Positions 4,720-34,828 of a DNA stretch of 64,000 nt are shown piece by piece. Under the pieces are notes generated by a model. That model worked only from the letters and a program-made list of their open reading frames with translations. It was not told the DNA's origin and made no database searches. The DNA lies in contig JACKLD010000013.1 of NCBI GenBank assembly GCA_024236095.1, positions 142,368 to 206,367 on the forward strand, in the 5' to 3' direction. The translations under genes were made by a program, and so were the position numbers. Every line of letters starts with the position of its first letter. Position 1 is the stretch's first letter. This DNA comes from Pseudomonadaceae bacterium. Lineage in GTDB: Bacteria; Pseudomonadota; Alphaproteobacteria; UBA2136; UBA6156.

Positions 4720-4750
4720 CACAACCGCCGGCTGGCGGTTGTGTTGTTCC
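4720..4750 (+). terminator. Putative intrinsic terminator after flgG (cacaaccgcc ggct ggcggttgtg then tgttcc)
   Basis: 10-bp perfect stem with 4-nt loop 19 nt after the flgG stop; the T-tract is weak. Confidence 0.45.
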
Positions 4751-4786
4751 GGCCGTTGCTTGATGTCATCCCGTTAAACTTGTAGA

Positions 4787-5356
4787 TTGGCGGCCATGCA
4801 CCTCCTCGTCGGCCTCGGTAACCCGGGTAAAGAGTACCAAAACACCCGCCACAACATTGGCTGGATGGTGCTGGATGCCATCCACGATGCCCATGGTTTC
4901 CCACCATGGCAGGCCAAGTTCAAGGGGCAGTACAGCAAGCACACCGTGGAGGGCCACGGCGTGGTGCTTTTAAAACCCCATACCTACATGAACCTCTCCG
5001 GCCAAAGCGTGCAGCCAGCGGCTACCTTCTTCAAGATTGCCCCCGACCACATCACCGCCATCCACGATGAACTCGACCTGCCGTTCCTTGCCCTGCGCCA
5101 CAAAACCGGCGGCGGCGATGCCGGTCACAACGGCCTCAAGTCCATCACTGCGGCGCTGGGGCCCAATTACCACCGCCTGCGTATCGGCATCGGCCGCCCC
5201 GTGCATAAATCCGATGTCTCCAACTATGTCCTCCACCCCTTCACCGCCGCCGAGGCGCTGGAGGTCAGCCAAGCCACCACCCGCATTGCCGAACATTTAC
5301 CGCTATTGCTGGATGACCCCAAGGCATTGCTGGACAAATTGGCTGCAAACCAGTAA
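4787..5356 (+). CDS. pth: Peptidyl-tRNA hydrolase
   Basis: 189 aa; [25 protein letters not shown]...HNGLKSI; start may be the second ATG at 4796 ([11 protein letters not shown]). Confidence 0.92.
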
Positions 5357-6470: not shown

Positions 6471-7229
6471 TTGATGACCGACATCACCTCCCCAACCAAC
6501 CCCCGCGTAAAGTCTCTGGCCAAACTGGCCGAGAAAAAACACCGCGCCGAAAGCGGCCTGTTTCTGTTGGAAGGCGAGGAGTACGTACGTACCGCCCTGC
6601 AAACAGGTTGGCAGGTGGAGGAAGTCTGGCACACGGGGGAGGAACCCCCCTCGAACATTCGAACATCGACCATTCGGACATCGACGAGCGTCCTTTCCAA
6701 AATCACCGGCAAACCCAACCCCCAAGCCGTCCTCGGCGTGCTGAAACAACGTTGGAACCCCTTGCCGACCACGCCCCAAGGCCTGTGGCTGGCGCTCGAT
6801 AGACCCCGCGACCCCGGCAACCTCGGCACCATCATCCGCACGGCGGATGCGGTGGGCGCGGCGGGTGTCATCCTCATCGGCGAGGCCACCGACCCCTACG
6901 CGCCGGAATGCGTCCGCGCCACCGTGGGCAGTCTCCTTCATGTGCCATTGGCCGCGTGCAGCGAGGCTGATTTCATCGGCTGGGCCAAGGGCAAACGGGT
7001 CATCGGCACCCACCTCAACGCCACGAAAGACTTCCGCACCTTCAGGGCCGAAGATGCCACCATTCTCCTCATGGGCAACGAAAGCGAGGGCCTTACCGAC
7101 GCCCTTACCAACATTTGCACCTGCTTGGCCAAAATCCCCATGCGCGGCCATACCGAAAGCCTCAACCTCGCCACCGCCACCGCGCTGATGCTGTACCAAC
7201 TGCAAGCCGATAATCTTACCTCGGCCTGA
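6471..7229 (+). CDS. TrmH/SpoU-family RNA 2'-O-methyltransferase (RlmB-like)
   Basis: 252 aa; SpoU methylase motifs (GNLGTIIRTADAVGAAGVILIG...LLMGNESEGL...SLNLATATALMLYQ); contains the short octamer tandem repeat noted separately. Confidence 0.85.
   Translation: MMTDITSPTNPRVKSLAKLAEKKHRAESGLFLLEGEEYVRTALQTGWQVEEVWHTGEEPPSNIRTSTIRTSTSVLSKITGKPNPQAVLGVLKQRWNPLPTTPQGLWLALDRPRDPGNLGTIIRTADAVGAAGVILIGEATDPYAPECVRATVGSLLHVPLAACSEADFIGWAKGKRVIGTHLNATKDFRTFRAEDATILLMGNESEGLTDALTNICTCLAKIPMRGHTESLNLATATALMLYQLQADNLTSA
6651..6690 (+). repeat. Imperfect 8-bp tandem repeat (tcgaacat x2, cgaccat, tcggacat) in the linker of the TrmH-family gene, encoding TSTIRTSTIRTST
   Basis: Direct reading of the sequence. 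Confidence 0.5.
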
Positions 7230-7282
7230 ACACCTTGTCGTTTCCGATGGCATCTTGATACCACGCGCGTTAGCCTCTCTCC

Positions 7283-7840
7283 ATGAACCGCCGCCAATTC
7301 CTTGCCTCGGCCGCCGTGGGCGTGGTTGCCCTCTCCAGCCTCTCAGTCCTTCGCCCGCTGCTGGCCGAGGCTGCCTCGCCCGTTCGTCCGCTTGACCCAC
7401 ACTTGAAAGTACCTGCCATGAAGCCGCTCCGCACCGATGACAACCCCACCCCGCCCGTCACATTGACCGATGCCGAGTGGAAACAACGTCTCAGCCCCCA
7501 AGCCTACAACGTGCTGCGCGGCCATGGCACCGAGCCCGCCCGCAGCAGCCCGTTAGACAAACAGTACGGCCAAGGCACCTACCACTGCGCAGGCTGCGGC
7601 CTCTCGGTGTACGGCAGCGACGCCAAGTTCGACAGCGGCACCGGCTGGCCCAGCTTTTACCAACCGATAGACCCTACCCATATCGGCACCAGCCGCGATT
7701 GGAAACTCATTTACCCCCGTACCGAAGTGCATTGCGCCCGCTGCAAGGGCCATTTGGGGCATGTGTTTGACGACGGCCCGCCGCCCACCGGCAAACGCTA
7801 CTGCATGAACGGCGTGGCCTTGGTGTTCAAACCTGCTTGA
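7283..7840 (+). CDS. msrB: Peptide-methionine (R)-S-oxide reductase MsrB with Tat signal peptide
   Basis: MNRRQFLASAAVGVVAL twin-arginine leader; YHCAGCGLSVYGSDAKFDSGTGWPSF...HCARCKGHLGHVFDDG. Confidence 0.9.
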   Translation: MNRRQFLASAAVGVVALSSLSVLRPLLAEAASPVRPLDPHLKVPAMKPLRTDDNPTPPVTLTDAEWKQRLSPQAYNVLRGHGTEPARSSPLDKQYGQGTYHCAGCGLSVYGSDAKFDSGTGWPSFYQPIDPTHIGTSRDWKLIYPRTEVHCARCKGHLGHVFDDGPPPTGKRYCMNGVALVFKPA

Positions 7841-7923
7841 CAGGTGGCTCCAACCTCGCCATAACTTGGCCCACATGGTTGGTTGGAGGTTGTTCAATCA
7901 ACCTCACCACTGAAGCCTCAGAG

Positions 7924-7945
7924 GTGGCCGCGGGCCACTTTTTTG
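7924..7945 (+). terminator. Intrinsic terminator after msrB (gtggcc gcg ggccac tttttt)
   Basis: 6-bp GC stem plus a T6 run 84 nt after the msrB stop and just upstream of rimP. Confidence 0.6.
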
Positions 7946-7979
7946 TTAGCCGAAAGTGGGTAATGGAGAGAGAACCGAC

Positions 7980-8519
7980 ATGACCACGCTGGATACCAAA
8001 CTGACGCAGATGGCCACCCAAGCCATGGCCGCCCATGGCCTTGCGCTGGTGTGCGCCCGCACCACCGGCGGCGGCAAGTACATGACGGTCCAGGTTCTGG
8101 TCGAGAAGCCCGACGGCAAGGGTGGTTTTGCCAGTCCCACGCTGGACGAATGCACCGCCGCCAGCCGCACCTTGGCCGCGCAGCTGGATGTCGCCGACCT
8201 GATTGCCACCCGCTACACGCTGGAAGTTGGCAGCCCCGGCATGGAGCGCCCGCTGATGTCGGTGGCCGACTGCACCCGTTTTATCGGCAAACAGGCCAAA
8301 TTCAAGTTCAAGCACGGCACGCAAACTGTCGGTGCCGTCACCGGCACCATCGATGCGGTGGAGGGCGAGACCATCACCCTCACCCCCGCCGATGGCACGC
8401 CGCAAACCAGCTTCTCCTTTGCCGACGTGCACGCGGCGCAGCTAAGCCCCAGCGAGGCCGACTACGCCGCTTTCATGAAGCAAAAACCCCGTTCAACCGA
8501 AGATCAACCAACCGAGTAA
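7980..8519 (+). CDS. rimP: Ribosome maturation factor RimP
   Basis: ATG 7980 preceded by ggagagag; the listed ORF begins at GTG 7956; conserved rimP-nusA-infB order. Confidence 0.85.
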   Translation: MTTLDTKLTQMATQAMAAHGLALVCARTTGGGKYMTVQVLVEKPDGKGGFASPTLDECTAASRTLAAQLDVADLIATRYTLEVGSPGMERPLMSVADCTRFIGKQAKFKFKHGTQTVGAVTGTIDAVEGETITLTPADGTPQTSFSFADVHAAQLSPSEADYAAFMKQKPRSTEDQPTE

Positions 8520-8536
8520 CCCCAAGGAGAACCGCC

Positions 8537-10207
8537 ATGAGCCTCAACTACATCCAAATGGCCGAAGCCGTCTCGAAAGAGAAGGATATCGATAAATCCG
8601 TCATCATCGACGCGATGGAACAGGCCATCCAGACCGCCGCCGCCAAAAAGCTGGCCAACGAGCTGCATCTGCAACCGTATGAACTGAGCGTGCAGGCCAG
8701 CATCGACCCCATTACCGGCGATGTGACCCTGAAGCGTCTCACCAAGGTGGTGCAAATGGTGATGGAACCCCTCAGCATTGAAGAGGCCCGCGCCGCCCGT
8801 CGCGAAGGCCGCGAGCCGGAAATGCGCCCCAGCTGCGACAAGCGCGGCTACCCGCTGACCCACAACGCCAACCAGATTTTGCTGAAGGAAGCGCAAAAAA
8901 CCAACCCGAAAGCGCAAATCGGCGACGTGATCGCCGAAGACCTCGCCAGCAAGTACTTCGATGGCCGCGTGGCCGCGCAGGCCGCCAAACAGGTTATTTT
9001 CCAGAAGCTGAAGGATGTGGACCGCGAGCGCGAAATGGAACGCTACAAAGACCAGGTCGGCACCATTGTGCAAGGCATCGTCAAGCGTGCCGACCACAAC
9101 GGCGCGCTGGTGGATTTGGGCGGTGCCGAAGCGTGGCTGCCCAAGGATGAAACCATCATGCGCGAGATGTTCAAGGCGAATGACCGCGTGCGTGCCTACA
9201 TCTACAAGGTGGCGCCGCAGTTCCGTGGCCCGCAAATCTTTCTTTCCCGCACCCACCCGCAGTTCTTGGTGGAGCTGTTCCGCGAGGCCGTGCCCGAAAT
9301 CGCCAACGGCACCATTGAAGTGATGGGCGCCGCCCGCGACCCGGGCTTCCGCGCCAAAATTGCGGTGAAGAGCTACGACTCCAACCTCGACCCGGTGGGC
9401 GCCTGCGTGGGTATCCGTGGCGTGCGCGTGCAAGCCGTGACCCAAGAGCTGCAAGGCGAGCGCGTCGATATCATCGAGTGGAGCCCCAACGCTGCCGAGT
9501 TCTTGGTGAAAGCCATGAAGCCCGCCGTGGTCTCCAAGGTGGTGCTGGATGAAGACGACAACCGTATTGAAGTAGTGGTGCCGGAAGACAACCTGAGCCT
9601 CGCCATCGGCCGTCGCGGACAAAACGTGCGTCTGGCCAGCATCCTCACCGGTTGGGACATCGACGTGATGACCGAAGCCGAAGAGGCCGACCGCCGCACC
9701 AAGGAATACAACGTGCTCAGCCAAAACCTGATGCAAAACCTCGACGTGGACGATGTGCTGGCCCGCCTGCTCATCGCCGAAGGCTTCCGCAGCATGGACG
9801 ATATCCTCAAAGTGACACCGGAAGAAATCGGTGCCATCGAAGGCCTGAACATGGACGTGGCCACCGAGCTGCAAACCCGTGCCAAGGCCGCGCTGGAGGC
9901 CGCCGCCGCCCACCTTGCCAAGCTGGGCGTCACCGAAGAGCTGAAAGCCATGCCCGGCATGACCGCCGACCTGGTGCTGGCGCTGGGTGAAAAAGGCATC
10001 AAGACCAAGGACGACCTTGGCGACTTGGCCGGTGACGAACTGCTGGAAATGCTGCCTCCCGGCTTGCTGAACGAAAAGCAGGCCAACAAGCTGATCATGG
10101 CCGCCCGGGCCCACTGGTTTGCCGAAGAAGAGGAAGACGAGGAGGATGAAGCCGCCGAAGCCGCCGCGCCTGCCGAAGCCAAACCGGCCGAGCCTGCGCA
10201 AGCCTAG
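8537..10207 (+). CDS. nusA: Transcription termination/antitermination factor NusA
   Basis: 556 aa; C-terminal part of listed ORF 8051..10207; RBS aaggaga; S1/KH domains (RDPGFRAKIAVKSYDSNLDPVGACVGIRGVRVQAVTQELQGERVDII) and an acidic C-terminus. Confidence 0.93.
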   Translation: MSLNYIQMAEAVSKEKDIDKSVIIDAMEQAIQTAAAKKLANELHLQPYELSVQASIDPITGDVTLKRLTKVVQMVMEPLSIEEARAARREGREPEMRPSCDKRGYPLTHNANQILLKEAQKTNPKAQIGDVIAEDLASKYFDGRVAAQAAKQVIFQKLKDVDREREMERYKDQVGTIVQGIVKRADHNGALVDLGGAEAWLPKDETIMREMFKANDRVRAYIYKVAPQFRGPQIFLSRTHPQFLVELFREAVPEIANGTIEVMGAARDPGFRAKIAVKSYDSNLDPVGACVGIRGVRVQAVTQELQGERVDIIEWSPNAAEFLVKAMKPAVVSKVVLDEDDNRIEVVVPEDNLSLAIGRRGQNVRLASILTGWDIDVMTEAEEADRRTKEYNVLSQNLMQNLDVDDVLARLLIAEGFRSMDDILKVTPEEIGAIEGLNMDVATELQTRAKAALEAAAAHLAKLGVTEELKAMPGMTADLVLALGEKGIKTKDDLGDLAGDELLEMLPPGLLNEKQANKLIMAARAHWFAEEEEDEEDEAAEAAAPAEAKPAEPAQA

Positions 10208-21859: not shown

Positions 21860-22744
21860 ATGTCCATTTTCATCACCGAAGACACCAAAGTCATCACCCA
21901 GGGCTTTACCGGCAAGCACGGGACGTTCCATAGCGAACAGGCACTGAAATACGGCAGCCGTTACGTGGGCGGCGTCACCCCTGGCAAGGGCGGAACCGAG
22001 CACCTCGGCTTGCCGGTGTTCGATACCGTGGCTGAAGCGGTGGCTGCCACCGGTGCCGAAGCCAGCGTCATTTACGTGCCGCCGCCGTTTGCCGCCGACG
22101 CCATTTTGGAGGCCGAAGCCGCCGGCATCAAAATCTGCGTGTGCATCACCGAGGGCATCCCCGTGCTGGATATGGTGAAGGTGAAGCGCAAGCTGATGGA
22201 CCCCAAATGCACCATGCGGCTGATCGGCCCCAACTGCCCCGGCATCATTACCCCCGGCGAGGGCAAAGGCTGCAAAATCGGCATCATGCCCGCTTACATC
22301 CACAAAAAGGGCAAGGTGGGTGTGGTCTCCAAGTCCGGCACGCTTACCTATGAGGCGGTCAAGCAAACCACCGATGTCGGCCTTGGCCAATCCACCTGCG
22401 TGGGTATCGGTGGCGATCCTGTCCCCGGCACCAACTTCATTCAGGTGCTGGCGGCGTTCGAGGCCGACCCGCAAACCGAAGGCATCGTGCTCATCGGCGA
22501 AATCGGCGGCATGGCGGAAATCGAAGCAGCCGAGTATATCAAAAACGCCGTTACCAAGCCGGTAGTGGCCTTTATCGCCGGAGCCAGCGCACCCAAGGGC
22601 AAACGCATGGGACACGCGGGCGCCATTATTTCCGGAGGCGACGACACCGCCGCCGCCAAAATCGATGCGCTGAAAAAGGCGGGCGCCACCGTGGTGGCCA
22701 GCCCCTCCGATCTCGGCGCCGCGATGAAGCAGTTGCTGGGGTAA
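21860..22744 (+). CDS. sucD: Succinyl-CoA synthetase alpha subunit
   Basis: 294 aa; CoA-binding and phosphohistidine loop ([10 protein letters not shown]). Confidence 0.95.
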
Positions 22745-23301: not shown

Positions 23302-23694
23302 TTATTGTTGCCGTCCGATGGCCAGGCGCTGCATGGAAGCCTGTTTGGCGTAAAGCTGGGTCATGTAGCGGTAGTCAATTTGGGTCTGGTTCATTTTCAC
23401 CAGTTCGTTGTCCAGCCGCACGGCATTGCCGTTGTGCTGGATGTAGCTGGCACTTTCCATCAAACGGTTGCTTGCGCCACTGGCGCCACCCGCCATGTGC
23501 TTGGGGTTGGTCAGACGCACGCCCATGTCGCTTTGGGCGCGTTCCAAGTAGGGAGCAAAAGCCAGCTCGCGGGGCTTGTATTCCGGCGTGTCGGCGTTGG
23601 CGATGTTGCCGGCAATCACCCCCTGCCGGTCGGTCAGGTAGTTCATGCGGGCGCTCAGCGCCGCGTGGATGGAAGGCTGGGCCGTGGTCGGCAT
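23302..23694 (-). CDS. flgB: Flagellar basal-body rod protein FlgB
   Basis: MPTTAQPSIHAALSARMNYLTDRQGVIAGNIANADTPEYKPRE...; RBS aagagga; start at 23694 inside listed ORF 23302..23922. Confidence 0.9.
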   Translation of the reverse strand: MPTTAQPSIHAALSARMNYLTDRQGVIAGNIANADTPEYKPRELAFAPYLERAQSDMGVRLTNPKHMAGGASGASNRLMESASYIQHNGNAVRLDNELVKMNQTQIDYRYMTQLYAKQASMQRLAIGRQQ

Positions 23695-23730
23695 GGCGGT
23701 TCCTCTTTCTTGTTCTCTCCGTGTTCCCAT

Positions 23731-23748
23731 ATGCAGGCAGCGTGCCAA
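23731..23748 (-). promoter_or_regulatory. Sigma54 -24/-12 promoter for flgBC (minus-strand reading TTGGCACgctgcCTGCAT)
   Basis: Reverse complement of 23731-23748 matches TGGCAC-N5-TTGCA; -12 lies about 38 nt upstream of the flgB ATG. Confidence 0.6.
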
Positions 23749-23767
23749 CTTTGAGAGGTTGGGCATC

Positions 23768-23785
23768 TTGGCACGCTCCCTGCAT
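23768..23785 (+). promoter_or_regulatory. Sigma54 -24/-12 promoter for flgI-flgJ-flgN-like (TTGGCACgctccCTGCAT)
   Basis: Matches TGGCAC-N5-TTGCA; mirror image of the minus-strand element 20 bp away; -12 about 30 nt upstream of the flgI RBS. Confidence 0.6.
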
Positions 23786-23812
23786 TTGCTTACCCGAACA
23801 AGGAAGACGCGT

Positions 23813-24937
23813 ATGAACAAACTGCTTACCACCCTGCTTGCCTGCCTGCTGGCGCTGCCGGTTTTGGCCGCCCCGACGGTAAAGATCAAAGACCTCGCCG
23901 AGGTGGAAGGCGTGCGCGACAACGTGCTGGTCGGCTACGGGCTGGTGGTCGGCTTGGCCGGCACCGGCGATAGCCCCAACGGCATCCCGTTCACCCGCCA
24001 AAGCCTCGCCAACATGCTGCAACGGTTAGGGGTCAATGCCAAAGACGTACTGTCCAACATCAAGACCAAAAACGTCGCGGCGGTGATGGTCACCGCCAAA
24101 CTACCCAGTCTGGCGCGGCAAGGCAGTAGCGTGGACGTGACGGTCAGCAGCCTTGGTGACGCCAAAAGCTTGGAAGGCGGCCTGTTGCTGGCCACGCCGC
24201 TGACCGGCGCCGACGGCCAAACCTACGCGGTGGCACAGGGTGCGATGGTCATCGGCGGTTATCAGGCCACCGGCAAGGATGGAACCAGTATTTCCAAAAA
24301 CCATACCACTGTGGCGCGCATCGCCAAGGGGGCTACGGTGGAGCGTGAAACCGGCTTCGAGCTTGCCAGTCTGGGGGATAGCCTGAAGTTCATGCTGCGT
24401 GAGCCCGATTTCACCACCGCCGTGCGCATGCGCGATGCCATCAATGCCGCCTTCAAGGAAAAACTTGCCATCGCCCGCGACAACAGCACCGTGGACGTAA
24501 CCGTGCCGACCCGCTATCAGCAACAGCTGGCGGCGATTATCGACAAGATTGAAAACCTGCGGGTGGAGCCAACCACCGACGCCCGCGTGGTGATCGATGA
24601 AAAGACCGGCACCATCGTGATGGGCGAAAACGTGACACTGGCGCCGGTGGCCATCTCGCACGCCAACCTCACCATCAAGGTGGTGGAAGAGCAGTTGGTC
24701 AGCCAACCGTTCAGCTTCAACGTGGCGGGTGAGACGGTGAAAATCGACCGCACCACCGAAATCAGCGTGGATGACGATCCCGACCACGGCAAGTTCAAGA
24801 TGCTGAAGGGCTCGGCCAGCCTGGCCGATCTGGTCAGCGGCCTGAATGCACTGGGAGTGAAACCGCGCGACGTCATCTCCATCTTGCAGAACATCAAGGC
24901 GGCCGGCGCGTTGAATGCCGAGCTGGTGGTGCTGTAA
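23813..24937 (+). CDS. flgI: Flagellar P-ring protein FlgI
   Basis: Signal peptide MNKLLTTLLACLLALPVLAAP; VRDNVLVGYGLVVGLAGTGDS...; RBS aggaag; inside listed ORF 23645..24937. Confidence 0.93.
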   Translation: MNKLLTTLLACLLALPVLAAPTVKIKDLAEVEGVRDNVLVGYGLVVGLAGTGDSPNGIPFTRQSLANMLQRLGVNAKDVLSNIKTKNVAAVMVTAKLPSLARQGSSVDVTVSSLGDAKSLEGGLLLATPLTGADGQTYAVAQGAMVIGGYQATGKDGTSISKNHTTVARIAKGATVERETGFELASLGDSLKFMLREPDFTTAVRMRDAINAAFKEKLAIARDNSTVDVTVPTRYQQQLAAIIDKIENLRVEPTTDARVVIDEKTGTIVMGENVTLAPVAISHANLTIKVVEEQLVSQPFSFNVAGETVKIDRTTEISVDDDPDHGKFKMLKGSASLADLVSGLNALGVKPRDVISILQNIKAAGALNAELVVL

Positions 24938-25296
24938 TGGCCGCCATATCCGCCCCCGTCATCAACCCCGCGCTGGCCGCCGCCGTGCCGCAGGCCACCA
25001 AGGACAAGCTGCAAGGCAAGGCCCGCGAGTTCGAGGCGTATTTCATTCAGCAGTTCATCAGCCTCACCCGTCCCGATATGTCGGATAACGAGGTGTTCGG
25101 CGGCGGTTTTTCCGAGCAGGTGTACGGCACCATGATGGACGAGCAGATGGCCACCGGCATCGCCAACCGTGGCGGCTTTGGCATCGCCAACCGCGTCTAT
25201 GCCGAGATGCTGCAGGCGCAGGCGGCCACGCTGCCTCCTGCTGCCGCCGTGGCACAAAATTATACCCCGCAACCCCAACAAGGAGCCCGCCCATGA
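24937..25296 (+). CDS. flgJ: Flagellar rod-binding protein FlgJ (N-terminal rod-binding domain only, no muramidase)
   Basis: 119 aa; EFEAYFIQQFISLTRPD...GGGFSEQVYGTMMDEQMATGIANRGGFGIANRVYAEML; start overlaps the flgI stop (TAATG). Confidence 0.8.
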   Translation: MAAISAPVINPALAAAVPQATKDKLQGKAREFEAYFIQQFISLTRPDMSDNEVFGGGFSEQVYGTMMDEQMATGIANRGGFGIANRVYAEMLQAQAATLPPAAAVAQNYTPQPQQGARP

Positions 25297-25742
25297 GCCA
25301 TACCCCCCAACCCGGCATCATTATCCAAATGATGGAAGCGCGCCAAGCCTGCCGCGACTTGATGGGCCTGATGGTCGAAGAAAACAACGGCCTTACCCGC
25401 AACAGCACCCACGAGGTGGAAACCCGCCTGCAACTGAAAAAGCGCCTGGCCCTGCGGTTGGAAAAACTGCTGGCCGATATCAAGAGCCAACGGGCCGACT
25501 TCCGTGGCAACCGGGAGGTGGAAAACCTTGCCGTGCGGCTGGCTGAAGAGATTGCGGTGTTTCAGGATATCGCCGCCAAAAACGAGCTGATGCTGCGCGC
25601 CGCCCACCGTTTGCGTGCCGACGTGGTGGCGGTGATCCGCGATACCATCGAGGCCAGCCAACCCCGCGTGCAAACCTACAACGCCCACGGCGCCAGCACG
25701 GTGGGAACCGCCGGCACCACGGTGGTGGCGACAACGGTGTGA
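25293..25742 (+). CDS. Flagellar-cluster protein, FlgN-like helical chaperone candidate
   Basis: 149 aa; start overlaps the flgJ stop (ATGA); coiled-coil-rich helical sequence; assignment by context only. Confidence 0.5.
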   Translation: MSHTPQPGIIIQMMEARQACRDLMGLMVEENNGLTRNSTHEVETRLQLKKRLALRLEKLLADIKSQRADFRGNREVENLAVRLAEEIAVFQDIAAKNELMLRAAHRLRADVVAVIRDTIEASQPRVQTYNAHGASTVGTAGTTVVATTV

Positions 25743-25760
25743 AAGGAAACTCTTGGCATG

Positions 25761-25788
25761 AAGAAGGGGGCACTGCCCCCTTTCTTCG
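25761..25788. terminator. Bidirectional hairpin between convergent flgN-like and fliW (gaagaaggggg cactg ccccctttcttc)
   Basis: 11-bp perfect stem. Confidence 0.55.
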
Positions 25789-25851
25789 TGCTTTCCCACA
25801 AAGACAAAAACAAAGGGAGTCAAGCCCCCTTTGCGCACAACCATACCGCCA

Positions 25852-26316
25852 TCAAATCTTATGCTGGGTCGTATAATCCTTGTTGGAGAGAATATACTGT
25901 ACGCCGGTGCGCTTGGAGCTGTCGATGAGGATCGGCGCCTTCAGGTTGGCGGTCAGGTAGTAGCTGTCGCCGTTGTCGTACAGGGTGAGGATGCTCAACA
26001 GCTGGGTGTCATCCTTGGGGAAGTTGGTTTCGATCATCGCCTCGCTGCTGTCGGCTTCGGCAATCTTCAGGCCCAGAATGTTCGGGTCGGCCACCAAAAA
26101 GGCCACTTCCGGCGCATTGACGCATTGCATCAGCAAAATCGGGCTTTCATCCACGTTGGGCAGGCGGGTCAGGCCAAACTGCGTGCACTCACGGAAGCCG
26201 AACAGCCCTTGCGGGAAGTCGATCAGGCGATCCTTGCGCAACGAAACCTCGCCGAAGCGGGTTTGGAAGGTCAGCTCTTCGCCCGCATCGCTGGTCATCA
26301 CTTGGGGGTTATTCAT
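25852..26316 (-). CDS. fliW: Flagellar assembly factor FliW
   Basis: ELTFQTRFGEVSLRKDRLIDFPQGLFGFRECTQFGL...FLVADPN is the FliW family pattern; start chosen at ATG 26316, overlapping the csrA stop by 8 bp. Confidence 0.8.
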   Translation of the reverse strand: MNNPQVMTSDAGEELTFQTRFGEVSLRKDRLIDFPQGLFGFRECTQFGLTRLPNVDESPILLMQCVNAPEVAFLVADPNILGLKIAEADSSEAMIETNFPKDDTQLLSILTLYDNGDSYYLTANLKAPILIDSSKRTGVQYILSNKDYTTQHKI

Positions 26317-26617
26317 CGTCGTCGCTCCCGTGGTTATGGTGGTTGTTGTGCTCATCGCGCCCGTCTCCGTTGGTTGTTGTTAAGGTGGAAGAGGTTGGCA
26401 AACGCCGCAAAACATCGCCCAAGGGGGCGCCGCTGCCAAGGGCGGCGGCTTTGTTCTCGGCCTGGATTTTGGTAAACAGCTCTTCGCGGTAGACGGTGTT
26501 TCCTTGCGGAAACTCGAAGCCCAGCTTCACCCGTCCGCCACGGATATCCACCACCTTCACGGTGATATCGCCATTGATGACAATGGCTTCGCCGGGGCGT
26601 CGGGTTATCAGCAGCAT
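26309..26617 (-). CDS. csrA: Carbon storage regulator CsrA with His/Asp-rich C-terminal tail
   Basis: MLLITRRPGEAIVINGDITVKVVDIRGGRVKLGFEFPQGNTVYREEL is the CsrA fold; the extra about 45 aa ends ...GRDEHNNHHNHGSDDDE. Confidence 0.85.
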   Translation of the reverse strand: MLLITRRPGEAIVINGDITVKVVDIRGGRVKLGFEFPQGNTVYREELFTKIQAENKAAALGSGAPLGDVLRRLPTSSTLTTTNGDGRDEHNNHHNHGSDDDE

Positions 26618-26675
26618 AAACGGGTCTCTTGGCTTCGGTAGGGTTGATGATAAGGGTCTGGCTCATGTTATACGC

Positions 26676-27587
26676 TTACCTCAAATAATCAAGCAGGCTG
26701 AGTTGGTTGACGCGGGTGATAATCAACATGCTTGCCTCCATGGTGGCCTGTTGCTGGCTGAAGCGGGTCAACGCTTCGGCCACGTCGACCTTTTCCAGTC
26801 CGTCAAGCTGTTCGCCCAGAAATTGCTTTTGCGCATCGTGGCGGGTGTTGATCTGCTCCAGCGTGTTGATCTGCCCGCCGATGCGTCCTTGCACCACCGC
26901 AAGGTTCTGGCGGGCGCTGTCGAGCGCCGCCACCGCGCTGTCGATATCGGACAGCGAGTTGTTCTGCATGCCGTACCACAAGGCTTCCAATCCGGCTTTC
27001 AGCTCCATGAAGGCTTGCTCGTTGCCCGCCACCCCGTACTGCAGGCTGCTGCCCGGGCCGGTAGAGACGGTGGGGGGCGTCGCATCACCGTTGTACCACG
27101 TGCTGGCCAGCGGCAGGCCGGGGAAGGCGGTGGCGGTGGGCGCGCCGCTCACCGGCTCGTCATCGCCATCTTGGCCGGAGAAGATGTAACTGCCTTCAAA
27201 CTTGGTCTTGAACAGGTTGTAAAAGGTATCGGCAATGGCCTGCACCTTGGGGGCGAGGCTTTGGCGGGTGCTGGCGCTGTTTTCGTTGCGGCCCAAGGTG
27301 GCCACGCTGGCGGCTTCCGAAAGCAGGTCGACCATGCCCGCCAAGGCGTTCTCGGCCGAGTTGAGGCGGTTGGTGGCGGTGGTGATGTTGCTTTGGTACA
27401 CGTCGGTGCGGGCCAGCACGTCGCGCAACGACACAATCTGGTTGCTGCTCTCTGCGGTATCGGCCAAGCGGCGGCCGGTGTTGCCGGAGGTGACCTGATA
27501 GCTGGTCAGGGCCAAGCCCTCGTTGGCGGTTTGCAGGTTCCGCAGGTTGGTTTGGTTTTGGAAATAGGTGGCGATACGTGTAACCAT
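26676..27587 (-). CDS. flgL: Flagellar hook-associated protein 3 FlgL
   Basis: 303 aa; flagellin-like N- and C-terminal helices (...QQATMEASMLIITRVNQLSLLDYLR). Confidence 0.88.
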   Translation of the reverse strand: MVTRIATYFQNQTNLRNLQTANEGLALTSYQVTSGNTGRRLADTAESSNQIVSLRDVLARTDVYQSNITTATNRLNSAENALAGMVDLLSEAASVATLGRNENSASTRQSLAPKVQAIADTFYNLFKTKFEGSYIFSGQDGDDEPVSGAPTATAFPGLPLASTWYNGDATPPTVSTGPGSSLQYGVAGNEQAFMELKAGLEALWYGMQNNSLSDIDSAVAALDSARQNLAVVQGRIGGQINTLEQINTRHDAQKQFLGEQLDGLEKVDVAEALTRFSQQQATMEASMLIITRVNQLSLLDYLR

Positions 27588-27592
27588 GGTGC

Positions 27593-29410
27593 TTACCTCA
27601 CAATGCCTAACAGGGTGTCGAACAGGTCGTTGACGACGGTGACGATGCGTGCGCTGGCCTGAAAGCTGTTTTGGTACACTAGCATGGTGGCCAGTTCTTC
27701 ATTCACGTTGACGCCGGACAGGCTGCTTTGCAGCTCGGCAATCTGGGTATCGATGGTTTCGGCGAAGGCTTCGCGGCTGTTGGCGTCTTTGATGGTCACC
27801 GCCAGTGTGGAGACGATGCGCCCCACATAGCCCGCGCTGTTGACGTTCTGCGCGCTCAAATCACCGGCGGCACCGAAGCTGAGAACCGTATCGGCCAACT
27901 GGCTGAGCGCCAGCATGTTGGCGTTGCTGCGCGAGGAAAGTCCGCCGTCTTCGGCGCGCATCCGACCCACGGCCACCAAATCGGGGTTGGTGGCGATGTC
28001 GCTGCGCACGGCGATGTCGTTGCTGTCGGCGCCGGTGAAGAAGTTGTTCATCCCCAACAGCCCCAGTGCGTTGCCGCTGACGTTGGACAGCACCACGTAC
28101 TGTCCGGCCGTTTGGGTTTGCAGGCGTATGATCGGGTCGCCGTTGCTGTCGGTGGTGGCGGTGGCGGTAATACCCAGCGTGCCGCCCAGCGTGGTGTTGC
28201 CCACGTCGGCGTTGCCGTTGATGAGGGTGGCCAAATCGTCCAGCGAGAACGGCCCCACGCCGGGGATGGCAATGGCGCCGCCGTTGCCCAGCGTGGTGGC
28301 GATGACATCACCCTGGCTGTTGACCACGCTGGCATGGAAGGTGGCGCCCGCAAGGCTGGCGGAAAGCTCGGTGAACAGGTCGGTGGCGGTGGTGGTGACG
28401 CCGCTGGTGCTGCCGCTTTGCAGCGTGGCCACTGGCGGGATGGCGCTGCCTTGGCTGTGCAGGCTGTTGAAGGCGGTCATGAAGGTGGAGGTAAACTCGT
28501 TCAGCTCGGCCAACAGGTTGGGGATGGTCGTGTCGCGCACGTCGATCAGGGCCTTGATGCGGCCGGTGCTCATGCTGTTGGTGTAAAGCGGCGTGGTGTT
28601 GGGGTCGAGACTGCCGTCTACCTTCACGTTTTGCACGACAATGTCGCCAAAAGGCCCGCTGCCGCCCACCCGCTTCAGCTGCACGTAGGTGCCTTCGTCC
28701 ACCAGCTTGCGGCCGTTTTCGGTGAGGATGCGCAGGCTGCCGTTCTGCGAGGTGGAGACCTGCAAGCCGAAACGCTTGGCCAGCTCGTCCACCTGGATGG
28801 CGCGGGCGTCCTTCAAATCGTTGGTATTGGCACCGTTGGCGGTATTGGCGTCTTGCGTGGCAATCTCCACGTTCAGGTCGTAAACCCGCTTCAGGATGGT
28901 ATTGATGCTGGTCAGCTCGGCGGTAATTTGGTCGTCGATGCGCTGCTGCACGTCATCCATGTCTTGGCTGATGCCGCGGATGGTGTCGCTCAGCAGCACC
29001 GCGCTTTGCACCGCGTTGCGGCGCAGGGCGCCGTCGGCGGGGCTGTTGGCCAGCTGGCTGGTGGCGGCGAAAAAGCCGTTGACCAGGTCTTCAAGGTTGC
29101 CGTCGGCGCTGGCGTTGCTGAAACTCCCCTCGATGTTATCAAGGAAGCTGCGGGTGGTGGTGGCGTAATCGAGGTCGGAGGCCGAGGTAAGCCCGCGCGC
29201 GGTGATGAAATTGTCGGTAATGCGCTGGATGGTGCCCAACTGTACCCCCGCGCCGAAGCCGTTGTAGGCCACCGCACTGTTTTGCGCCACTTGGCGCGTA
29301 AAGCCCTGCGTGTTGGCGTTTACGATGTTGTGGCTGATGGTGCCGATGCCGACCTGACTGTTCTGCAACCCGCCGGTGGCAATGCGAAGGGCGTTGGAAA
29401 GCGTGCTCAT
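27593..29410 (-). CDS. flgK: Flagellar hook-associated protein 1 FlgK
   Basis: MSTLSNALRIATGGLQNSQVGIGTISHNIVNANTQGF...; start at ATG 29410 inside listed ORF 27593..29470; no obvious Shine-Dalgarno sequence. Confidence 0.9.
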   Translation of the reverse strand: MSTLSNALRIATGGLQNSQVGIGTISHNIVNANTQGFTRQVAQNSAVAYNGFGAGVQLGTIQRITDNFITARGLTSASDLDYATTTRSFLDNIEGSFSNASADGNLEDLVNGFFAATSQLANSPADGALRRNAVQSAVLLSDTIRGISQDMDDVQQRIDDQITAELTSINTILKRVYDLNVEIATQDANTANGANTNDLKDARAIQVDELAKRFGLQVSTSQNGSLRILTENGRKLVDEGTYVQLKRVGGSGPFGDIVVQNVKVDGSLDPNTTPLYTNSMSTGRIKALIDVRDTTIPNLLAELNEFTSTFMTAFNSLHSQGSAIPPVATLQSGSTSGVTTTATDLFTELSASLAGATFHASVVNSQGDVIATTLGNGGAIAIPGVGPFSLDDLATLINGNADVGNTTLGGTLGITATATTDSNGDPIIRLQTQTAGQYVVLSNVSGNALGLLGMNNFFTGADSNDIAVRSDIATNPDLVAVGRMRAEDGGLSSRSNANMLALSQLADTVLSFGAAGDLSAQNVNSAGYVGRIVSTLAVTIKDANSREAFAETIDTQIAELQSSLSGVNVNEELATMLVYQNSFQASARIVTVVNDLFDTLLGIVR

Positions 29411-29420
29411 GGCCGGTGGT

Positions 29421-29437
29421 ATGCATAAGACGTGCCA
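29421..29437 (-). promoter_or_regulatory. Candidate sigma54 -24/-12 element for flgKL-csrA-fliW (minus reading TGGCACgtcttATGCAT)
   Basis: GG/GC spacing is 12 nt; the -12 sits only about 12 nt from the chosen flgK ATG, implying a leaderless transcript if real. Confidence 0.35.
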
Positions 29438-29470
29438 AGTAAGGCGGGAGAGTCTGTTAGCCCCTTCCAC

Positions 29471-30347: not shown

Positions 30348-30453
30348 CGTCAGGCAACGCATAAATCGCCCAATCCGCTACCAAGGGCCTTGTTGGCCCT
30401 TGTTTGTTTTGCTAGGTTGCGGCCATAGCACCTTGCCAAGAAAGAACAATGCC

Positions 30454-30993
30454 ATGGCCAAACCGTCTTCCAAGCCAACCGCCAGTGCCTCCGACGTGGA
30501 CGCCGACCGCCGCAAGTTTCTGGTGGGTACCACGGCTGCGGTAGGCGCGGTAGGTGCCGCCTGTTGCGCGGTGCCGTTTGTCGGCAGCATGGCGCCCAGC
30601 CGCGATGTCGCGGCGCAGGCCACGGTAGACATCAATCTAAGTGAGATCCCCGAAGGCGAAGCCAAAACCTATTTGTGGCAGGGCAAGCCGGTGTTCGTCT
30701 GGCACCGCAATGCCGCACAGATTGCCGCCGCAAAGGCGGGCGACACCACCAGCACCATGGACCCCGAGCCCGACGCCAAGCGTGTGCAAAAGCCGGAATG
30801 GCTTGTGGTTCTGGGCATTTGCACCCACTTGGGCTGCGTGCCTATCCGCAATGACGAAGTGGGCGGCTGGCGTTGCCCCTGCCACGGCAGCCAGTTCGAT
30901 GTCAGCGGCCGCGTCATTCATGGGCCTGCAGGCACCAACCTGCACATTCCGCCCTACACGTTTGTTGACGATAACACCCTCCGTATCGGCTAA
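30454..30993 (+). CDS. petA: Ubiquinol-cytochrome c reductase Rieske iron-sulfur subunit
   Basis: Tat-like [18 protein letters not shown]; CTHLGCVP...CPCHGSQF Rieske boxes; inside listed ORF 30400..30993. Confidence 0.92.
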
Positions 30994-31007
30994 GGAAAGC
31001 AACCCCC

Positions 31008-32228
31008 ATGGCATCCCTCAAACCCAAGGCCGTCGAGCAGAACATCACCCGCAACCCGCTGAAATGGTTTGATGACCGCCTGCCGCTGGTTTCGCTCATC
31101 AACAACTCGGTGGGCCGCAACTTCCCCGCGCCGAAGAATCTCAACTACATGTGGAATTTCGGCAGTCTGGCGGGCATCGCGCTGGTTATCCAAATCCTCA
31201 CCGGCCTGTTTCTGGCCATGCATTACAAGGCCGACGTGGCGCTGGCGTTTGATAGTGTCCAGCACATCATGCGCAACGTGCAGTGGGGTTGGCTGATCCG
31301 CAACCTGCACATGGTGGGGGCCAGTTTCTTCTTCATCGTGGTGTACGTGCATATGGCGCGGGGGCTGTATTACGGCAGCTACAAAAGCCCGCGTGAAGTG
31401 CTTTGGGGTATCGGTGTCATCATCTTCCTCATCATGATGGCCACCGCCTTCATGGGCTACGTGCTGCCGTGGGGGCAAATGAGCTATTGGGGCGCCACCG
31501 TCATCACCAACCTGCTGTCGGTCATCCCGTTTGTGGGCGACGAGGTGGTGGTGTGGATATGGGGCGGTTACAGCGTGGGCGACCCAACCCTGACCCGCTT
31601 TTACGCGCTACACTTTTTGCTGCCGTTCGTGATTGTCGGCATTGTCATTCTGCACATCTGGGCGCTGCACGAGCACAAGAGCAACAACCCCACGGGGCTG
31701 GATTTGCAAGATGAAAAAGACTTCATCCCCTTCCATCCGTATTACACGGTCAAGGACATCTTCGGCCTCGGCGTGTACCTCATCGCCTTTGCCCTCATGG
31801 TGTTTTACGCGCCGGATTATCTGGGCCACACCGACAACTATATCCCCGCCAATCCGCTGGTGACGCCTGCGCACATCGTGCCGGAATGGTATTTCTTGCC
31901 GTTCTACGCCATTTTGCGCGCCATCCCCATCAAGGAGCTTGGCGTGGTGGCGATGTTCGGCAGCATCCTCATCCTGTTCGTGCTGCCATGGCTGGATAGT
32001 AGCCGCGTGCGCAGCGCCCGTTACCGCCCGCTATACCGTTCCTTGTACTGGGTGTTTTTGCTGAACTTTCTTGTTCTCGGCTGGGTGGGCAGCAAACCGC
32101 CGGAAGGCATTTACGTGCTCATCGCCCGCTTTGCCACCGCGTACTACTTCCTGTTCTTCGCCCTGCTGCCGGTGGTCGCACGGGTGGAAAAGACCAGAAA
32201 ACTTCCCAAAACCATTGATGAGGCTTAA
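31008..32228 (+). CDS. petB: Cytochrome b
   Basis: 406 aa; conserved haem-ligand histidines and the PEWY motif ([16 protein letters not shown]). Confidence 0.95.
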
Positions 32229-32232
32229 CCCC

Positions 32233-32952
32233 ATGCGCATGTTTGTTCTCCTCCTTGGCCTGTTGTTCCCGCTGGCCGTGGCGGCCGGTGAAGGCCCCGC
32301 CATCGCCAAACAGGACTGGGGCTTTGACGGCCTGCACGGGCAATATGACAAAGCCACCGTTTATCGCGGCTATCAGGTATTTACGCAGGTGTGCATGGCT
32401 TGCCACAGCGCCAAGTATGTCAGCCATGCCGACCTCGACCGCGCAGGCTTTACGCCGGAAGAAATCGCCGCCTTGGCCAAAAGCATGAACCTTACCACCA
32501 CCGACAAGCTGGTAAGCGGCCTCGCCCCCGCCGATGCGCAAGAGGTGTACGGCAAAGTGCCGCCCGACCTCTCGGTCATCACCAAGGCCCGCGCCGGTTT
32601 GGCCGACTACACCTACGCCGTGCTGACCGGTTACAGCGACGATGTGGAAGCCCTCGCCCACGCCTTCCCCAACAGCGAGGTGCCTGCCGGTGCCTACTTC
32701 AACACCGCCTTTGCAGGGTACGCCATCGCCATGCCCAATCCGCTGCCCAACGCCGACATGGTCACCTACACCGACGGAACCCCTGCCACCGTGCCGCAAA
32801 TGGCCCATGACGTCACCGTCTTCCTGCAATGGGCCGCCGAGCCGGAGCTGATTGAGCGCAAGCATTTGGGCGTGTATGTGCTGCTGTTCCTTGCCATCTT
32901 CACCTTGCTGGCTTACCTGACCAAGAAGGCGATTTGGAGGGATGTGCATTGA
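32233..32952 (+). CDS. petC: Cytochrome c1
   Basis: Signal peptide MRMFVLLLGLLFPLAVAA; CMACHS haem site; C-terminal membrane anchor; inside listed ORF 32071..32952. Confidence 0.9.
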   Translation: MRMFVLLLGLLFPLAVAAGEGPAIAKQDWGFDGLHGQYDKATVYRGYQVFTQVCMACHSAKYVSHADLDRAGFTPEEIAALAKSMNLTTTDKLVSGLAPADAQEVYGKVPPDLSVITKARAGLADYTYAVLTGYSDDVEALAHAFPNSEVPAGAYFNTAFAGYAIAMPNPLPNADMVTYTDGTPATVPQMAHDVTVFLQWAAEPELIERKHLGVYVLLFLAIFTLLAYLTKKAIWRDVH

Positions 32953-33407
32953 TGCAGGTTGTGGATGACCGCCCCATCAACTTCATTGAGCATATCTGGT
33001 GTTACCTGTCGCCGTTTTCGGCCCACCAGATTGATATCTGGGGCGAGTCTTTTCCCACGGTCGAGCATGCCTATCACTGGAAGCGTTATCTTCCTGGTCA
33101 GGCACGCACCAAGATCATGCAAACCAAAAGCCCGCTTGAATGCTTGCACGTTTCGCATCAGCTGAAAAAAGACCCGGCCTTGCTTGACCCTGCTTTTGAC
33201 AAAGACGCCGTGATGGAGGAGCTGTTTCGCGCCAAGTTGGACCAGCACCCCCACATTGCCGACGTTCTCAAATTGACGGGCGAGCGCGTATTGCTGAAAG
33301 AAATTTCCACCGACCCGTATTGGGGCACCGGCGCAGACGGCAAAGGGCTGAACAAAATGGGCGATTTGTGGATGAAATTGCGGAAAGAACTTACGGTTGC
33401 CTCATGA
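32952..33407 (+). CDS. NADAR-family protein (YbiA-like)
   Basis: FSAHQIDIWGESFPTVEHAYHWKRY...DPYWGTGADGKGLNKMGDLWMKLR; ATG overlaps the petC stop (TGATG). Confidence 0.8.
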   Translation: MQVVDDRPINFIEHIWCYLSPFSAHQIDIWGESFPTVEHAYHWKRYLPGQARTKIMQTKSPLECLHVSHQLKKDPALLDPAFDKDAVMEELFRAKLDQHPHIADVLKLTGERVLLKEISTDPYWGTGADGKGLNKMGDLWMKLRKELTVAS

Positions 33408-33964
33408 ACCCCCGCATCTACCTTGAAACCGAGCATTTTACCTTGCGGTTGCCGCATCCGGAGGATATTCGGGCGATGCAACTAGCGATTTCCATGAGCC
33501 TGCCGGAACTGGCGCGCTGGATGCCCCGCGCGCTGAAAGGCCAAACCCAGAAGCAAACACGGGATTACATCTACACGCAAATGGCGTTGTTCGTGCAGGA
33601 TGAGAATTACCTCTTCGGCATGTTCGGCAAGGAAAGCGGGGCCTTTTTGGGCAGTGTGGAGCTGGGCGTGCGGATTCCAAAAATTCCCAGTTACGAAGTC
33701 GGGTTTTGGGTGCGCAGCGATGTGACCGGCAAAGGCTATGCCCGCGAGGCGGTGGCCGCCGTCACCGACTATGCGTTTGACAAACTGAAGGCCAAGCGGG
33801 TGTTTTTGCGTTGCGAGGCCGACAACATCGGCAGCCAAAAAGTGGCCGAAGCCTGTGGCTTTACCAAAGAAGCCCACCTGCGCAACGATGCCTTGGCGGT
33901 CGACAACCGCACCCCAGTCGATACGCTGGTGTACGGCATGGTACCGGAGATGCACGGTGCGTAA
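33404..33964 (+). CDS. GNAT-family N-acetyltransferase (RimJ/RimL-like)
   Basis: VGFWVRSDVTGKGYAREAVAAVTDYAFDKLKAKRVFLRCEADNIGSQKVAEACGF; ATG overlaps the NADAR stop (ATGA). Confidence 0.8.
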   Translation: MNPRIYLETEHFTLRLPHPEDIRAMQLAISMSLPELARWMPRALKGQTQKQTRDYIYTQMALFVQDENYLFGMFGKESGAFLGSVELGVRIPKIPSYEVGFWVRSDVTGKGYAREAVAAVTDYAFDKLKAKRVFLRCEADNIGSQKVAEACGFTKEAHLRNDALAVDNRTPVDTLVYGMVPEMHGA

Positions 33965-33986
33965 ACGGATTGAGCCCGGCTGGCGG

Positions 33987-34547
33987 ATGACGGTGGCGCA
34001 ACTGGTCTTGCGTCTCATGTTCGGTCGCACATGGCATTACATTTCCCCATGGAAAAAGGCGGGTGCGGCATCCATTCTGTTGGCGCTACATCGCGGAAAG
34101 GTGCTTTTAGGGCAACGGAAGGGCAACATAGAGTTCACCGGGTGTTGGAGCGGGTTAGGGGGTTTTGTCGAACTGGCCCAACGGGAGGGCTTTTCCGATG
34201 GGTTATGCCGCGAACTGCACGAGGAAACCGGACGCGAAATTCCGCCAGAAGCCTTCCCGCCCCACCCGACGCGAGTATACCTCAAGTACGGGCAAGAAAA
34301 ACTGGAAGAAGCCGACTGTGCGGTGATTGTAGCGCACTACGTGGTGCAGGTTGGGGAAGACTTTGCCGAGACCTTGGCCCCGCAAGAGGAGACGGGGGGC
34401 TTTCGCTGGTTTGACGAAGCGGAATGCATGGCGATGATTGCCGATGGGCGCATCCCGCCGGATTTTTACGACTTGCACGACTCGCTGCGCGAAACCTTTG
34501 CCGCCTTGCGGAAGGGGAAAGAGTTTCCTTTGTTGAAAGTAGCCTAG
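33987..34547 (+). CDS. Nudix hydrolase
   Basis: Canonical Nudix box GGFVELAQREGFSDGLCRELHEETG; ATG 33987 inside listed ORF 33855..34547. Confidence 0.75.
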   Translation: MTVAQLVLRLMFGRTWHYISPWKKAGAASILLALHRGKVLLGQRKGNIEFTGCWSGLGGFVELAQREGFSDGLCRELHEETGREIPPEAFPPHPTRVYLKYGQEKLEEADCAVIVAHYVVQVGEDFAETLAPQEETGGFRWFDEAECMAMIADGRIPPDFYDLHDSLRETFAALRKGKEFPLLKVA

Positions 34548-34828
34548 CGCGCCAGGGCTGCTAAAACCCTGTCGGCAGACGGCGTACCACCGTTTTCCAC
34601 CGCAATTGTCATGCCGGGAAACTCTTCTTCCACCCGCGCCTTCAGCACATGACCGTCGCTGCTATCCGTTTGCATGGTTGGGCGGGCAGTAAAGCGCGTA
34701 CCGTTGATGGTGGCGGTGAGGGGCTGCCCCAGTGCGTTGGCCACTTCGGTGAGGCGTGGCATCACCTCACGGGGCGAGGGCGTACTTGTCATTGCAGTAT
34801 CACTCTTCACACGTGCATGGATATTCAT
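34544..34828 (-). CDS. Hypothetical protein (94 aa) downstream of rsmD
   Basis: ORF only. Confidence 0.3.
   Translation of the reverse strand: MNIHARVKSDTAMTSTPSPREVMPRLTEVANALGQPLTATINGTRFTARPTMQTDSSDGHVLKARVEEEFPGMTIAVENGGTPSADRVLAALAR

Follow-up and report, generated by a model that had tools for sequence, protein, structure and literature searches.

Proteins of the NADAR superfamily are assigned to subfamilies according to a single catalytic residue of the last strand, which is Glu in the YbiA type, Asp in the type linked to DarT1, and His in the phage type (PMC11543638, PMC11125620). A stand-alone NADAR is also coded within the rpsU-dnaG-rpoD operon of pathogenic Escherichia coli; its physiological role is unknown, and a safeguard against nucleic-acid ADP-ribosylation has been proposed (PMC11125620). 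The stretch analyzed here is 64,000 nucleotides (nt) long (contig JACKLD010000013.1 of assembly GCA_024236095.1, positions 142,368 to 206,367 of the forward strand) and is designated as the window. In it, genes for a NADAR protein, a GNAT acetyltransferase, and a Nudix hydrolase directly follow the cytochrome bc1 genes petA, petB, and petC. The three genes of this cassette probably code for housekeeping enzymes that act independently and are carried on the petABC transcript as a changeable operon tail, and do not form an ADP-ribose pathway.

The slot behind petC was compared in 11 lineages of an uncultured alphaproteobacterial clade, mostly reached via contigs encoding GNAT or Nudix homologs. 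A GNAT ortholog was present in 10 of the 11 lineages, a Nudix gene in three, and a NADAR gene in two. Other genes of the slot were Exo_endo_phos (two lineages), asparaginase (one), and an unrelated open reading frame (ORF) of 72 amino acids (aa; one). The full NADAR-GNAT-Nudix trio was found in the source genome only, with contigs L001 and L002 as identical copies, and two of the three genes are shared with the window by L056 and L061. The first-pass annotation of the window had asked whether the linkage is conserved in related genomes, and had named a linkage unique to this genome, with the genes separately distributed in relatives, as the outcome contrary to its proposal of an ADP-ribose or NAD processing unit. 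This is largely what was found. As the trio is unique and its members are distributed separately, a conserved functional module is not supported.

The relatives have a common gene order of flgK-flgL-csrA-fliW-x-petABC-slot, followed by convergent msrB, SpoU methylase, ychF, pth, and rplY genes. The closest relative is L061, with 91% identity in petB and 89% in GNAT. The unrelated 72-aa ORF of L061 (7786-8004) stands in the place of NADAR and is flanked by TGATG and ATGA junctions identical to those of the window. It resembles a gene replacement with both overlaps preserved; its origin from a decayed NADAR was ruled out, as there is no similarity (BLASTP E 2.2) and no Pfam match. No Nudix remnant was found past GNAT in L056 (tblastn E>3), and the space is taken there by an unrelated minus-strand ORF of 199 aa with no Pfam match. 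In L064, a gene for an Exo_endo_phos (EEP) phosphoesterase is located at 7170-8597, and a strong terminator-like hairpin, AAAAGGCGGCTTGGCCGCCTTTTTT, was predicted between petC and this gene. The Exo_endo_phos gene adjoins Nudix in L064 and GNAT in the contig JGI 3300056388. Terminator-like hairpins are present directly 3' of petC in L064, L067, and L073, so co-transcription with bc1 is not a conserved property of the slot. In L072, petB and petC form a single ORF of 643 aa (3060-4991), a layout similar to that of fbcH, the fused gene for cytochromes b and c1 in Bradyrhizobium.

All three genes of the cassette have the substitution pattern of protein-coding sequences. Nucleotide identities at codon positions 1, 2, and 3 are 0.87, 0.95, and 0.55 for NADAR compared with L056, 0.88, 0.95, and 0.63 for GNAT compared with L061, and 0.62, 0.71, and 0.44 for Nudix compared with L061. 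Position 2 is more conserved than position 1, and both are much more conserved than position 3, so by this pattern NADAR, GNAT, and Nudix are genuine genes under purifying selection. Their identities as given by the first-pass annotation agree with the Pfam matches (Table 1). The Nudix protein is only 48% identical between the window and L061, where petB is 90% identical, and it is thus fast-evolving.

The NADAR protein matches PF08719 with 65.9 bits (cutoff 35.1) over profile positions 13-162 of 163. Its nearest solved structure is E. coli YbiA (2b3w), which is an N-glycosidase that acts on intermediates in riboflavin biosynthesis, with E 3.6e-18 and 31-33% identity, and its ortholog in L056 is 86% identical. 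The AlphaFold2 (AF2) model has a predicted local distance difference test score (pLDDT) of 92.9. In Foldseek, this model was matched with 2b3w (E 4e-10, template modelling (TM) score 0.80) and with the ADP-ribose-bound Phytophthora NADAR 8bau (E 1e-4, TM 0.72). In the predicted structure, the protein has the YbiA-like alpha+beta fold and is a member of the superfamily. The difference is at the discriminating position. In profile alignments to 2b3w and 8bau, Lys116 (codon 33297-33299) is aligned with the catalytic Glu of YbiA, as LLKEISTDPYWG compared with LVEHTENDAYWG and LYEASRHDAIWG; the reference Glu is E125 of the P. nicotianae NADAR and that of LVEHT in E. coli YbiA, and the last strand in the model comprises residues 114-115. 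Lys is at this position in 115 of 117 NADAR homologs, and the residue that follows is variable. The ribose-contacting Glu of the T-x-E-H motif (E38; E43 of the P. nicotianae NADAR) is invariant. The phosphate-binding basic position +7 (K50 of the P. nicotianae NADAR) is Arg45 in the window, R in 99 homologs, and K in 21. An additional invariant Glu of Lys-type NADARs is E13 in the N-terminal motif I-N-F-I-E.

In an exhaustive profile search, 17,109 NADAR representatives were obtained. Among the best 150 of them, E was at the discriminating position in 107 domains and K in 14, and the latter are clustered among the top-scoring single-domain matches. The riboflavin intermediates N-glycosidase model TIGR02464 gave 59.2 bits, which is below its cutoff of 73.7. 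With Lys116 in place of Glu, the window protein lacks the residue that defines the YbiA subfamily, though it belongs to the NADAR superfamily. By sequence, it is a member of a clade with invariant Lys at the subfamily-defining position, which consists mostly of Patescibacteria and some uncultured Alphaproteobacteria. No description of such a clade was found in the NADAR literature covered, which did not include the original 2012 classification, and no link of the window NADAR to rib genes was seen. The window protein probably acts as an N-glycosidase or in a de-ADP-ribosylase-like manner, its chemistry or substrate being altered with Lys in place of Glu.

A NADAR homolog profile scanned over one genome per species gave 53 loci. 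Genes of the pet operon were beside NADAR at one of these, L003, which is the same contig as L056 (an alphaproteobacterial metagenome-assembled genome), and no relative of the window GNAT or Nudix was found within 8 kb of NADAR at any of the 52 other loci (phmmer E<0.01). Orthologs with 73-75% identity are arranged as dnaN-recF-NADAR in L058 (4908-7697) and L009 (5606-8441); L009 is labelled Pseudomonas fluorescens, and this label looks doubtful. In L006 (5872-11525), the order is ftsQ-ftsA-NADAR, with NADAR 6 nt past ftsA and upstream of ftsZ. The L006 protein is 57% identical to that of the window over the full alignment and 59% in the best local segment, and an unrelated GNAT (Acetyltransf_1) is located ~1 kb downstream of it. 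About eight to ten genomes of Patescibacteria have the order rpsP-khpA-NADAR-trmD. This arrangement of rpsP (S16), khpA (KH), NADAR, and trmD is seen in L019 (6967-9100) and also in L020, L025, L027, L028, L029, and L032, with gaps of 3-60 nt; the position between rpsP-khpA and trmD is usually held by rimM in other bacteria. In view of the recF, ftsA, and rpsP-trmD settings, NADAR has repeatedly joined core housekeeping operons as a rider. No NADAR is annotated at the rpsU-dnaG-rpoD locus of strain O157:H7 Sakai. The G+C content over the window NADAR is slightly low, 0.535 compared with ~0.60. An origin of NADAR from a mobile element was considered and rejected; the phage and plasmid collections contained only YbiA-like relatives of ~30% identity.

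These NADAR data bear also on the possibility that the gene serves for immunity or as an antitoxin, and belongs to an anti-phage or toxin-antitoxin system (DarT1-NADAR or YarT-YbiA type) that landed by petABC. NADARs do serve as antitoxins in DarTG1 and YarT-YbiA (PMC11543638, PMC11125620), and the window protein weakly resembles NF053876 (DS32_2), an NCBIfam model for anti-phage NADARs. The score is 31.2 bits, compared with a cutoff of 240. In PADLOC, neither NADAR and GNAT nor the flanking ORFs (orf94 and orf217) were matched, and the sole result was a marginal one to the Nudix box. No ADP-ribosyltransferase or other toxin gene was detected beside the cassette; petC, GNAT, Nudix, and rsmD are the neighbours that could be identified, and Pfam matched neither of the two small flanking ORFs. 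With Lys at the position where DarT1-linked NADARs have Asp, and with phage and plasmid relatives as distant as stated above, such a role is very improbable.

The GNAT protein matches PF13302 (Acetyltransf_3, RimJ/RimL-like) over the full profile with 97.2 bits (cutoff 25.4), and the segment R-S-D-V-x-G-x-G-Y is conserved in its acetyl-CoA motif region. The best matches in PDB are 2fck and 1nsl, putative ribosomal-protein-serine acetyltransferases. The RimL equivalog NF007539 gave 33.3 bits, far under its cutoff of 184, and the protein is therefore not assigned to RimL. Its N-terminal half is strikingly conserved and contains the clade-specific motif K-G-Q-T-Q-x-Q-T-R-D-Y-I-Y-T-Q-M-A-L-F-V-Q-D. 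A word-indexed search of 5.8e9 proteins revealed ~18 GNAT homologs, all from the clade. The protein is most likely a clade-specific, RimJ/RimL-like protein N-acetyltransferase.

GNAT orthologs (58-89% identity) are always located directly past petC or past one inserted gene. A metagenome scan with the GNAT profile gave two true orthologs (L072 and L073), both after petC, and two unrelated GNATs. Such constancy could mean that GNAT is a dedicated accessory factor of bc1, for example one that acetylates a subunit or an assembly factor at the N-terminus or at lysine, with the hydrolases as add-ons. Its ortholog trails petC in 10 of 11 lineages, which span 75-91% petB identity, with gaps of -4 to 19 nt in five lineages; it remains with petC in the window and in L068 despite their rearranged flanks, and the strong conservation of its N-terminal half and the apparent restriction of the family to the clade point in the same direction. 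On the other hand, terminator-like hairpins or gaps of ~190 nt part petC and GNAT in L067, L068, and L073, and the petABC genes of L064 have no GNAT. Synteny extends over the whole region, unrelated flagellar genes included, and the adjacency may therefore be inherited order only; a literature search for petABC with an acetyltransferase returned nothing relevant as a precedent. A dedicated bc1 factor is rather unlikely, though GNAT and bc1 may be tied in function.

The Nudix protein matches PF00293 with 41.6 bits (cutoff 21.1). The box E-x7-R-E-L-H-E-E-T-G is kept in three orthologs, with a two-residue insertion (G-x7-E compared with G-x5-E). It is preceded by a conserved N-terminal extension of ~35 residues (33957-34060 in the window) with no known domain, which reads R-I-E-P-G-W-R-x3-A-Q-x-V-L-R-L-x-F-G-R-x-W-H-Y-I-S-P-W in the alignment with the L061 and L064 orthologs; AlphaFold confidence over this extension is below pLDDT 50. 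The word-indexed search gave one non-self match, to which the L061 copy is added. Sequence matches are to MTH1/MutT-type proteins through the Nudix box only. The NadM-Nudix models reached 24 bits (cutoff 354), the MutT/CTPase models were equally weak, and all equivalog models were far below cutoff. The AF2 model is poor (pLDDT 63, only two sequences in the input), and the Foldseek neighbours of this low-confidence model are mixed, namely ADPRase, RppH, CDP-Chase, MutT2, and GDP-mannose hydrolase. No ADP-ribose-specific signal was seen in the sequence models or among these low-confidence structural neighbours. The protein is probably a nucleoside-diphosphate-X pyrophosphatase, and this function is putative.

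The properties of the three proteins bear on the proposal that NADAR, GNAT, and Nudix form a single module that processes ADP-ribose, or metabolites or adducts derived from NAD, and whose co-expression with complex III is deliberate. All three superfamilies include members that act on ADP-ribose or NAD derivatives (PMC11543638, PMC9503650), the genes are tightly coupled, and the Exo_endo_phos-Nudix pair in the L064 slot hints at nucleotide-related content. This was not borne out, as close relatives lack each of the three genes independently of the others, the 52 other NADAR loci have no GNAT or Nudix of the window type nearby, the GNAT is RimJ/RimL-like, the Nudix shows no signal specific for ADP-ribose, the NADAR has Lys116 and not the catalytic Glu used in ADP-ribose hydrolysis, and no ADP-ribosyltransferase was detected beside the cassette. 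A module of this kind is improbable.

Six consecutive ORFs were listed on the + strand across 30400-34547, and their coordinates are in Table 1. The petA product is 61-75% identical to Rieske/UCR_Fe-S_N genes of the relatives, and for petC the gene caller chose ATG 32233 on L001. The TGATG and ATGA overlaps reported in the first-pass annotation are present in the sequence. TGATG follows petC likewise in L056 and L061, and at the position equivalent to the GNAT start there is ATGA in L061 and GTGA in L056. A Nudix gene starting 22 nt past GNAT had also been reported; this distance is correct for ATG 33987, but the start is most likely GTG 33957, in an 8-nt overlap with the end of GNAT. This start is favoured because the added N-terminus M-x-x-R-I-E/Q-P-G-W-R is kept in both known orthologs, because GGAG is located 7 nt upstream, and because the gene caller picked the same start on the identical Logan contig. 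The overlaps of the operon are then TGATG, ATGA, and GTGCGTAA.

Table 1. Features of the pet operon and its tail in the window, and content of the slot behind petC in the compared lineages.
Feature	Position	Strand	Remarks
Terminator-like hairpin closing the preceding gene	30382..30402	+	Consensus scan; likely marks where the pet transcription unit begins
petA, Rieske iron-sulfur subunit of cytochrome bc1	30400..30993	+	ORF; start uncertain, 30400 TTG or internal ATG near 30451
petB, cytochrome b	31008..32228	+	ORF; 75-91% identity to Cytochrome_B genes of relatives
petC, cytochrome c1	32218..32952	+	Pfam Cytochrom_C1 E 1.1e-62; ATG 32218 overlaps the petB end
TGATG junction, petC stop/NADAR start	32950..32954	+	1-nt overlap; petC TGA 32950-32952, NADAR ATG 32952
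NADAR gene, 151 aa	32952..33407	+	PF08719 E 6.6e-18; TGA at 33405-33407
ATGA junction, NADAR stop/GNAT start	33404..33407	+	4-nt overlap, from sequence
GNAT gene, 186 aa	33404..33964	+	PF13302 E 1.7e-27; TAA at 33962-33964
GGAG, Shine-Dalgarno-like motif	33946..33949	+	Upstream of GTG 33957
Nudix gene, 196 aa from the most likely start GTG 33957	33957..34547	+	PF00293 E 1.5e-10; alternative ATG 33987 gives 186 aa
Slot, window			NADAR-GNAT-Nudix
Slot, L056			NADAR-GNAT
Slot, L061			72-aa ORF-GNAT-Nudix
Slot, L064			Exo_endo_phos-Nudix; petABC without GNAT
Slot, JGI 3300056388 contig			GNAT-Exo_endo_phos
Slot, L067			GNAT-asparaginase
Slot, L068			GNAT, then radical-SAM gene
Slot, L070, L072, L073			GNAT alone

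From petA to the Nudix stop, no convincing terminator-like site was found on the + strand by consensus scan, only one weak 5-bp hairpin within the Nudix ORF. The tight coupling of the cassette to petABC that the first-pass annotation described is evident at the junctions, with co-transcription as the likely consequence. The six genes petA-petB-petC-NADAR-GNAT-Nudix are very probably co-transcribed in the source genome, as we infer from their layout, and the overlaps in the cassette may be translationally coupled. Overlaps of 1 or 4 nt were counted in six of 43 same-strand neighbour pairs on a crude gene map of the window, and two of the six are at the cassette locus. Since such overlaps are frequent in the genome, the packing of the cassette is a genome-wide habit and not a special mark of the locus.

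If the cassette is a changeable tail of independent enzymes, a single transcript from the pet promoter would cover petA-petB-petC-NADAR-GNAT-Nudix. At the 1-nt and 4-nt overlaps, ribosomes would terminate and reinitiate to translate NADAR and GNAT, and Nudix translation would start at GTG 33957 with its own GGAG, overlapping the GNAT stop. The arrangement may then be an evolutionary by-product, in which the stretch from petC to the next convergent block is a variable slot of the clade. The clade-specific GNAT would be the resident of this slot, and other small hydrolase genes would come and go around it. NADAR would have been inserted recently between petC and GNAT in one sub-lineage, and the fast-evolving, clade-restricted Nudix would have been retained in few lineages. 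Each enzyme would act alone, constitutively expressed, in a housekeeping or house-cleaning role; independence of function and the substrates of all three enzymes are what we infer here.

Three observations weigh against independent riders. GNAT keeps its place beside petC despite the rearrangement of both flanks in the window and in L068, which could point to a true tie to bc1 in function and not to inertia. Each of NADAR, Nudix, and Exo_endo_phos is a hydrolase able to act on nucleotide or NAD-derived substrates, so the content of the slot may not be functionally random. Finally, the sampled relatives are metagenome contigs, so genes counted as missing could lie elsewhere in those genomes. 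A further reading would be that GNAT is dedicated to a bc1 subunit or its assembly and that the slot recruits hydrolases of nucleotide or NAD derivatives (Lys-type NADAR, extended Nudix, and Exo_endo_phos) that service the complex or its redox by-products. This combination seems to be quite unlikely, and independent riders on the petABC transcript are the reading that we consider probable.

Around the cassette, a convergent ORF of 94 aa on the - strand (34544-34828) overlaps the Nudix stop by 4 nt and has no Pfam or PADLOC match. Downstream of the slot, the window has rsmD, rluB, and an amidotransferase gene in place of msrB, SpoU methylase, ychF, pth, and rplY. Upstream, at 23645-29470, the window was compared with the order of the relatives (flgI, rod-binding gene, a gene of 150 aa, flgK, flgL, csrA, and fliW, all on the pet strand), and the last four ORFs of this block are on the opposite strand in the window, as if inverted. 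Among the flank genes of the window, flgK was checked by sequence and rsmD by Pfam/NCBIfam, and the other names were derived from position or ORF translations. ARAGORN predicted an 83-nt tRNA-Ala (GGC) at 21954-22036, inside an ORF of 294 aa (21860-22744) of the crude map; the tRNA and the ORF are probably not both correct. No Rfam family was matched in the window, hence no FMN or other riboswitch is predicted there. The nearest relatives of the pet, NADAR, and GNAT genes carry the label Alphaproteobacteria, and the label Pseudomonadaceae of the source looks doubtful.

The cassette itself is ordinary. It illustrates how small housekeeping genes ride a strong core operon in a compact genome, and tight overlaps alone should not be taken as a sign of a shared pathway. 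The clade of Lys-type NADARs and the clade-wide adjacency of petC and GNAT are modestly interesting leads. Lys-type NADARs are stand-alone bacterial proteins in which an invariant Lys replaces the Glu, Asp, or His of every NADAR characterised so far, and they are found repeatedly inside core operons (petABC, dnaN-recF, ftsQA, and rpsP-khpA-trmD). They extend the question raised by the NADAR of the E. coli rpoD operon, whether such proteins are constitutive guards against nucleic-acid ADP-ribosylation or act on another substrate. The clade-specific GNAT trailing petC is a candidate for acetylation of a bacterial respiratory complex.

Compared with the RimJ/RimL/RimI-type N-acetyltransferases, the window GNAT has the same Pfam family and a similar size of ~186 aa, but it trails petC and is not near ribosomal genes. 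The window Nudix has the catalytic core R-E-x2-E-E-x-G in common with the ADP-ribose pyrophosphatases (NadM-Nudix domain) and the MutT/MTH1 enzymes, and differs from both in the two-residue insertion in the box and in the ~35-residue extension. The NADAR of the window has the superfamily fold of the DarT1-NADAR (DarTG1) and YarT-YbiA pairs; unlike these, it has no adjacent ADP-ribosyltransferase and no N-terminal DNA-binding extension, and its discriminating residue is Lys and not Asp or Glu. Like E. coli YbiA, it has the minimal fold without extensions and keeps the Glu of T-x-E-H and the basic residue at +7, whereas the Glu in the last strand of YbiA is Lys116 in the window protein. In a comparison by description only, the NADAR of the E. 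coli rpoD operon is reported to keep its catalytic residues and to hydrolyse guanine-ADP-ribose, whereas the window clade has Lys. Both are single-domain proteins without a partner toxin, coded in a conserved constitutive housekeeping operon, which is rpsU-dnaG-rpoD in E. coli, petABC in the window, and that of recF, ftsA, or rpsP-trmD in the relatives.

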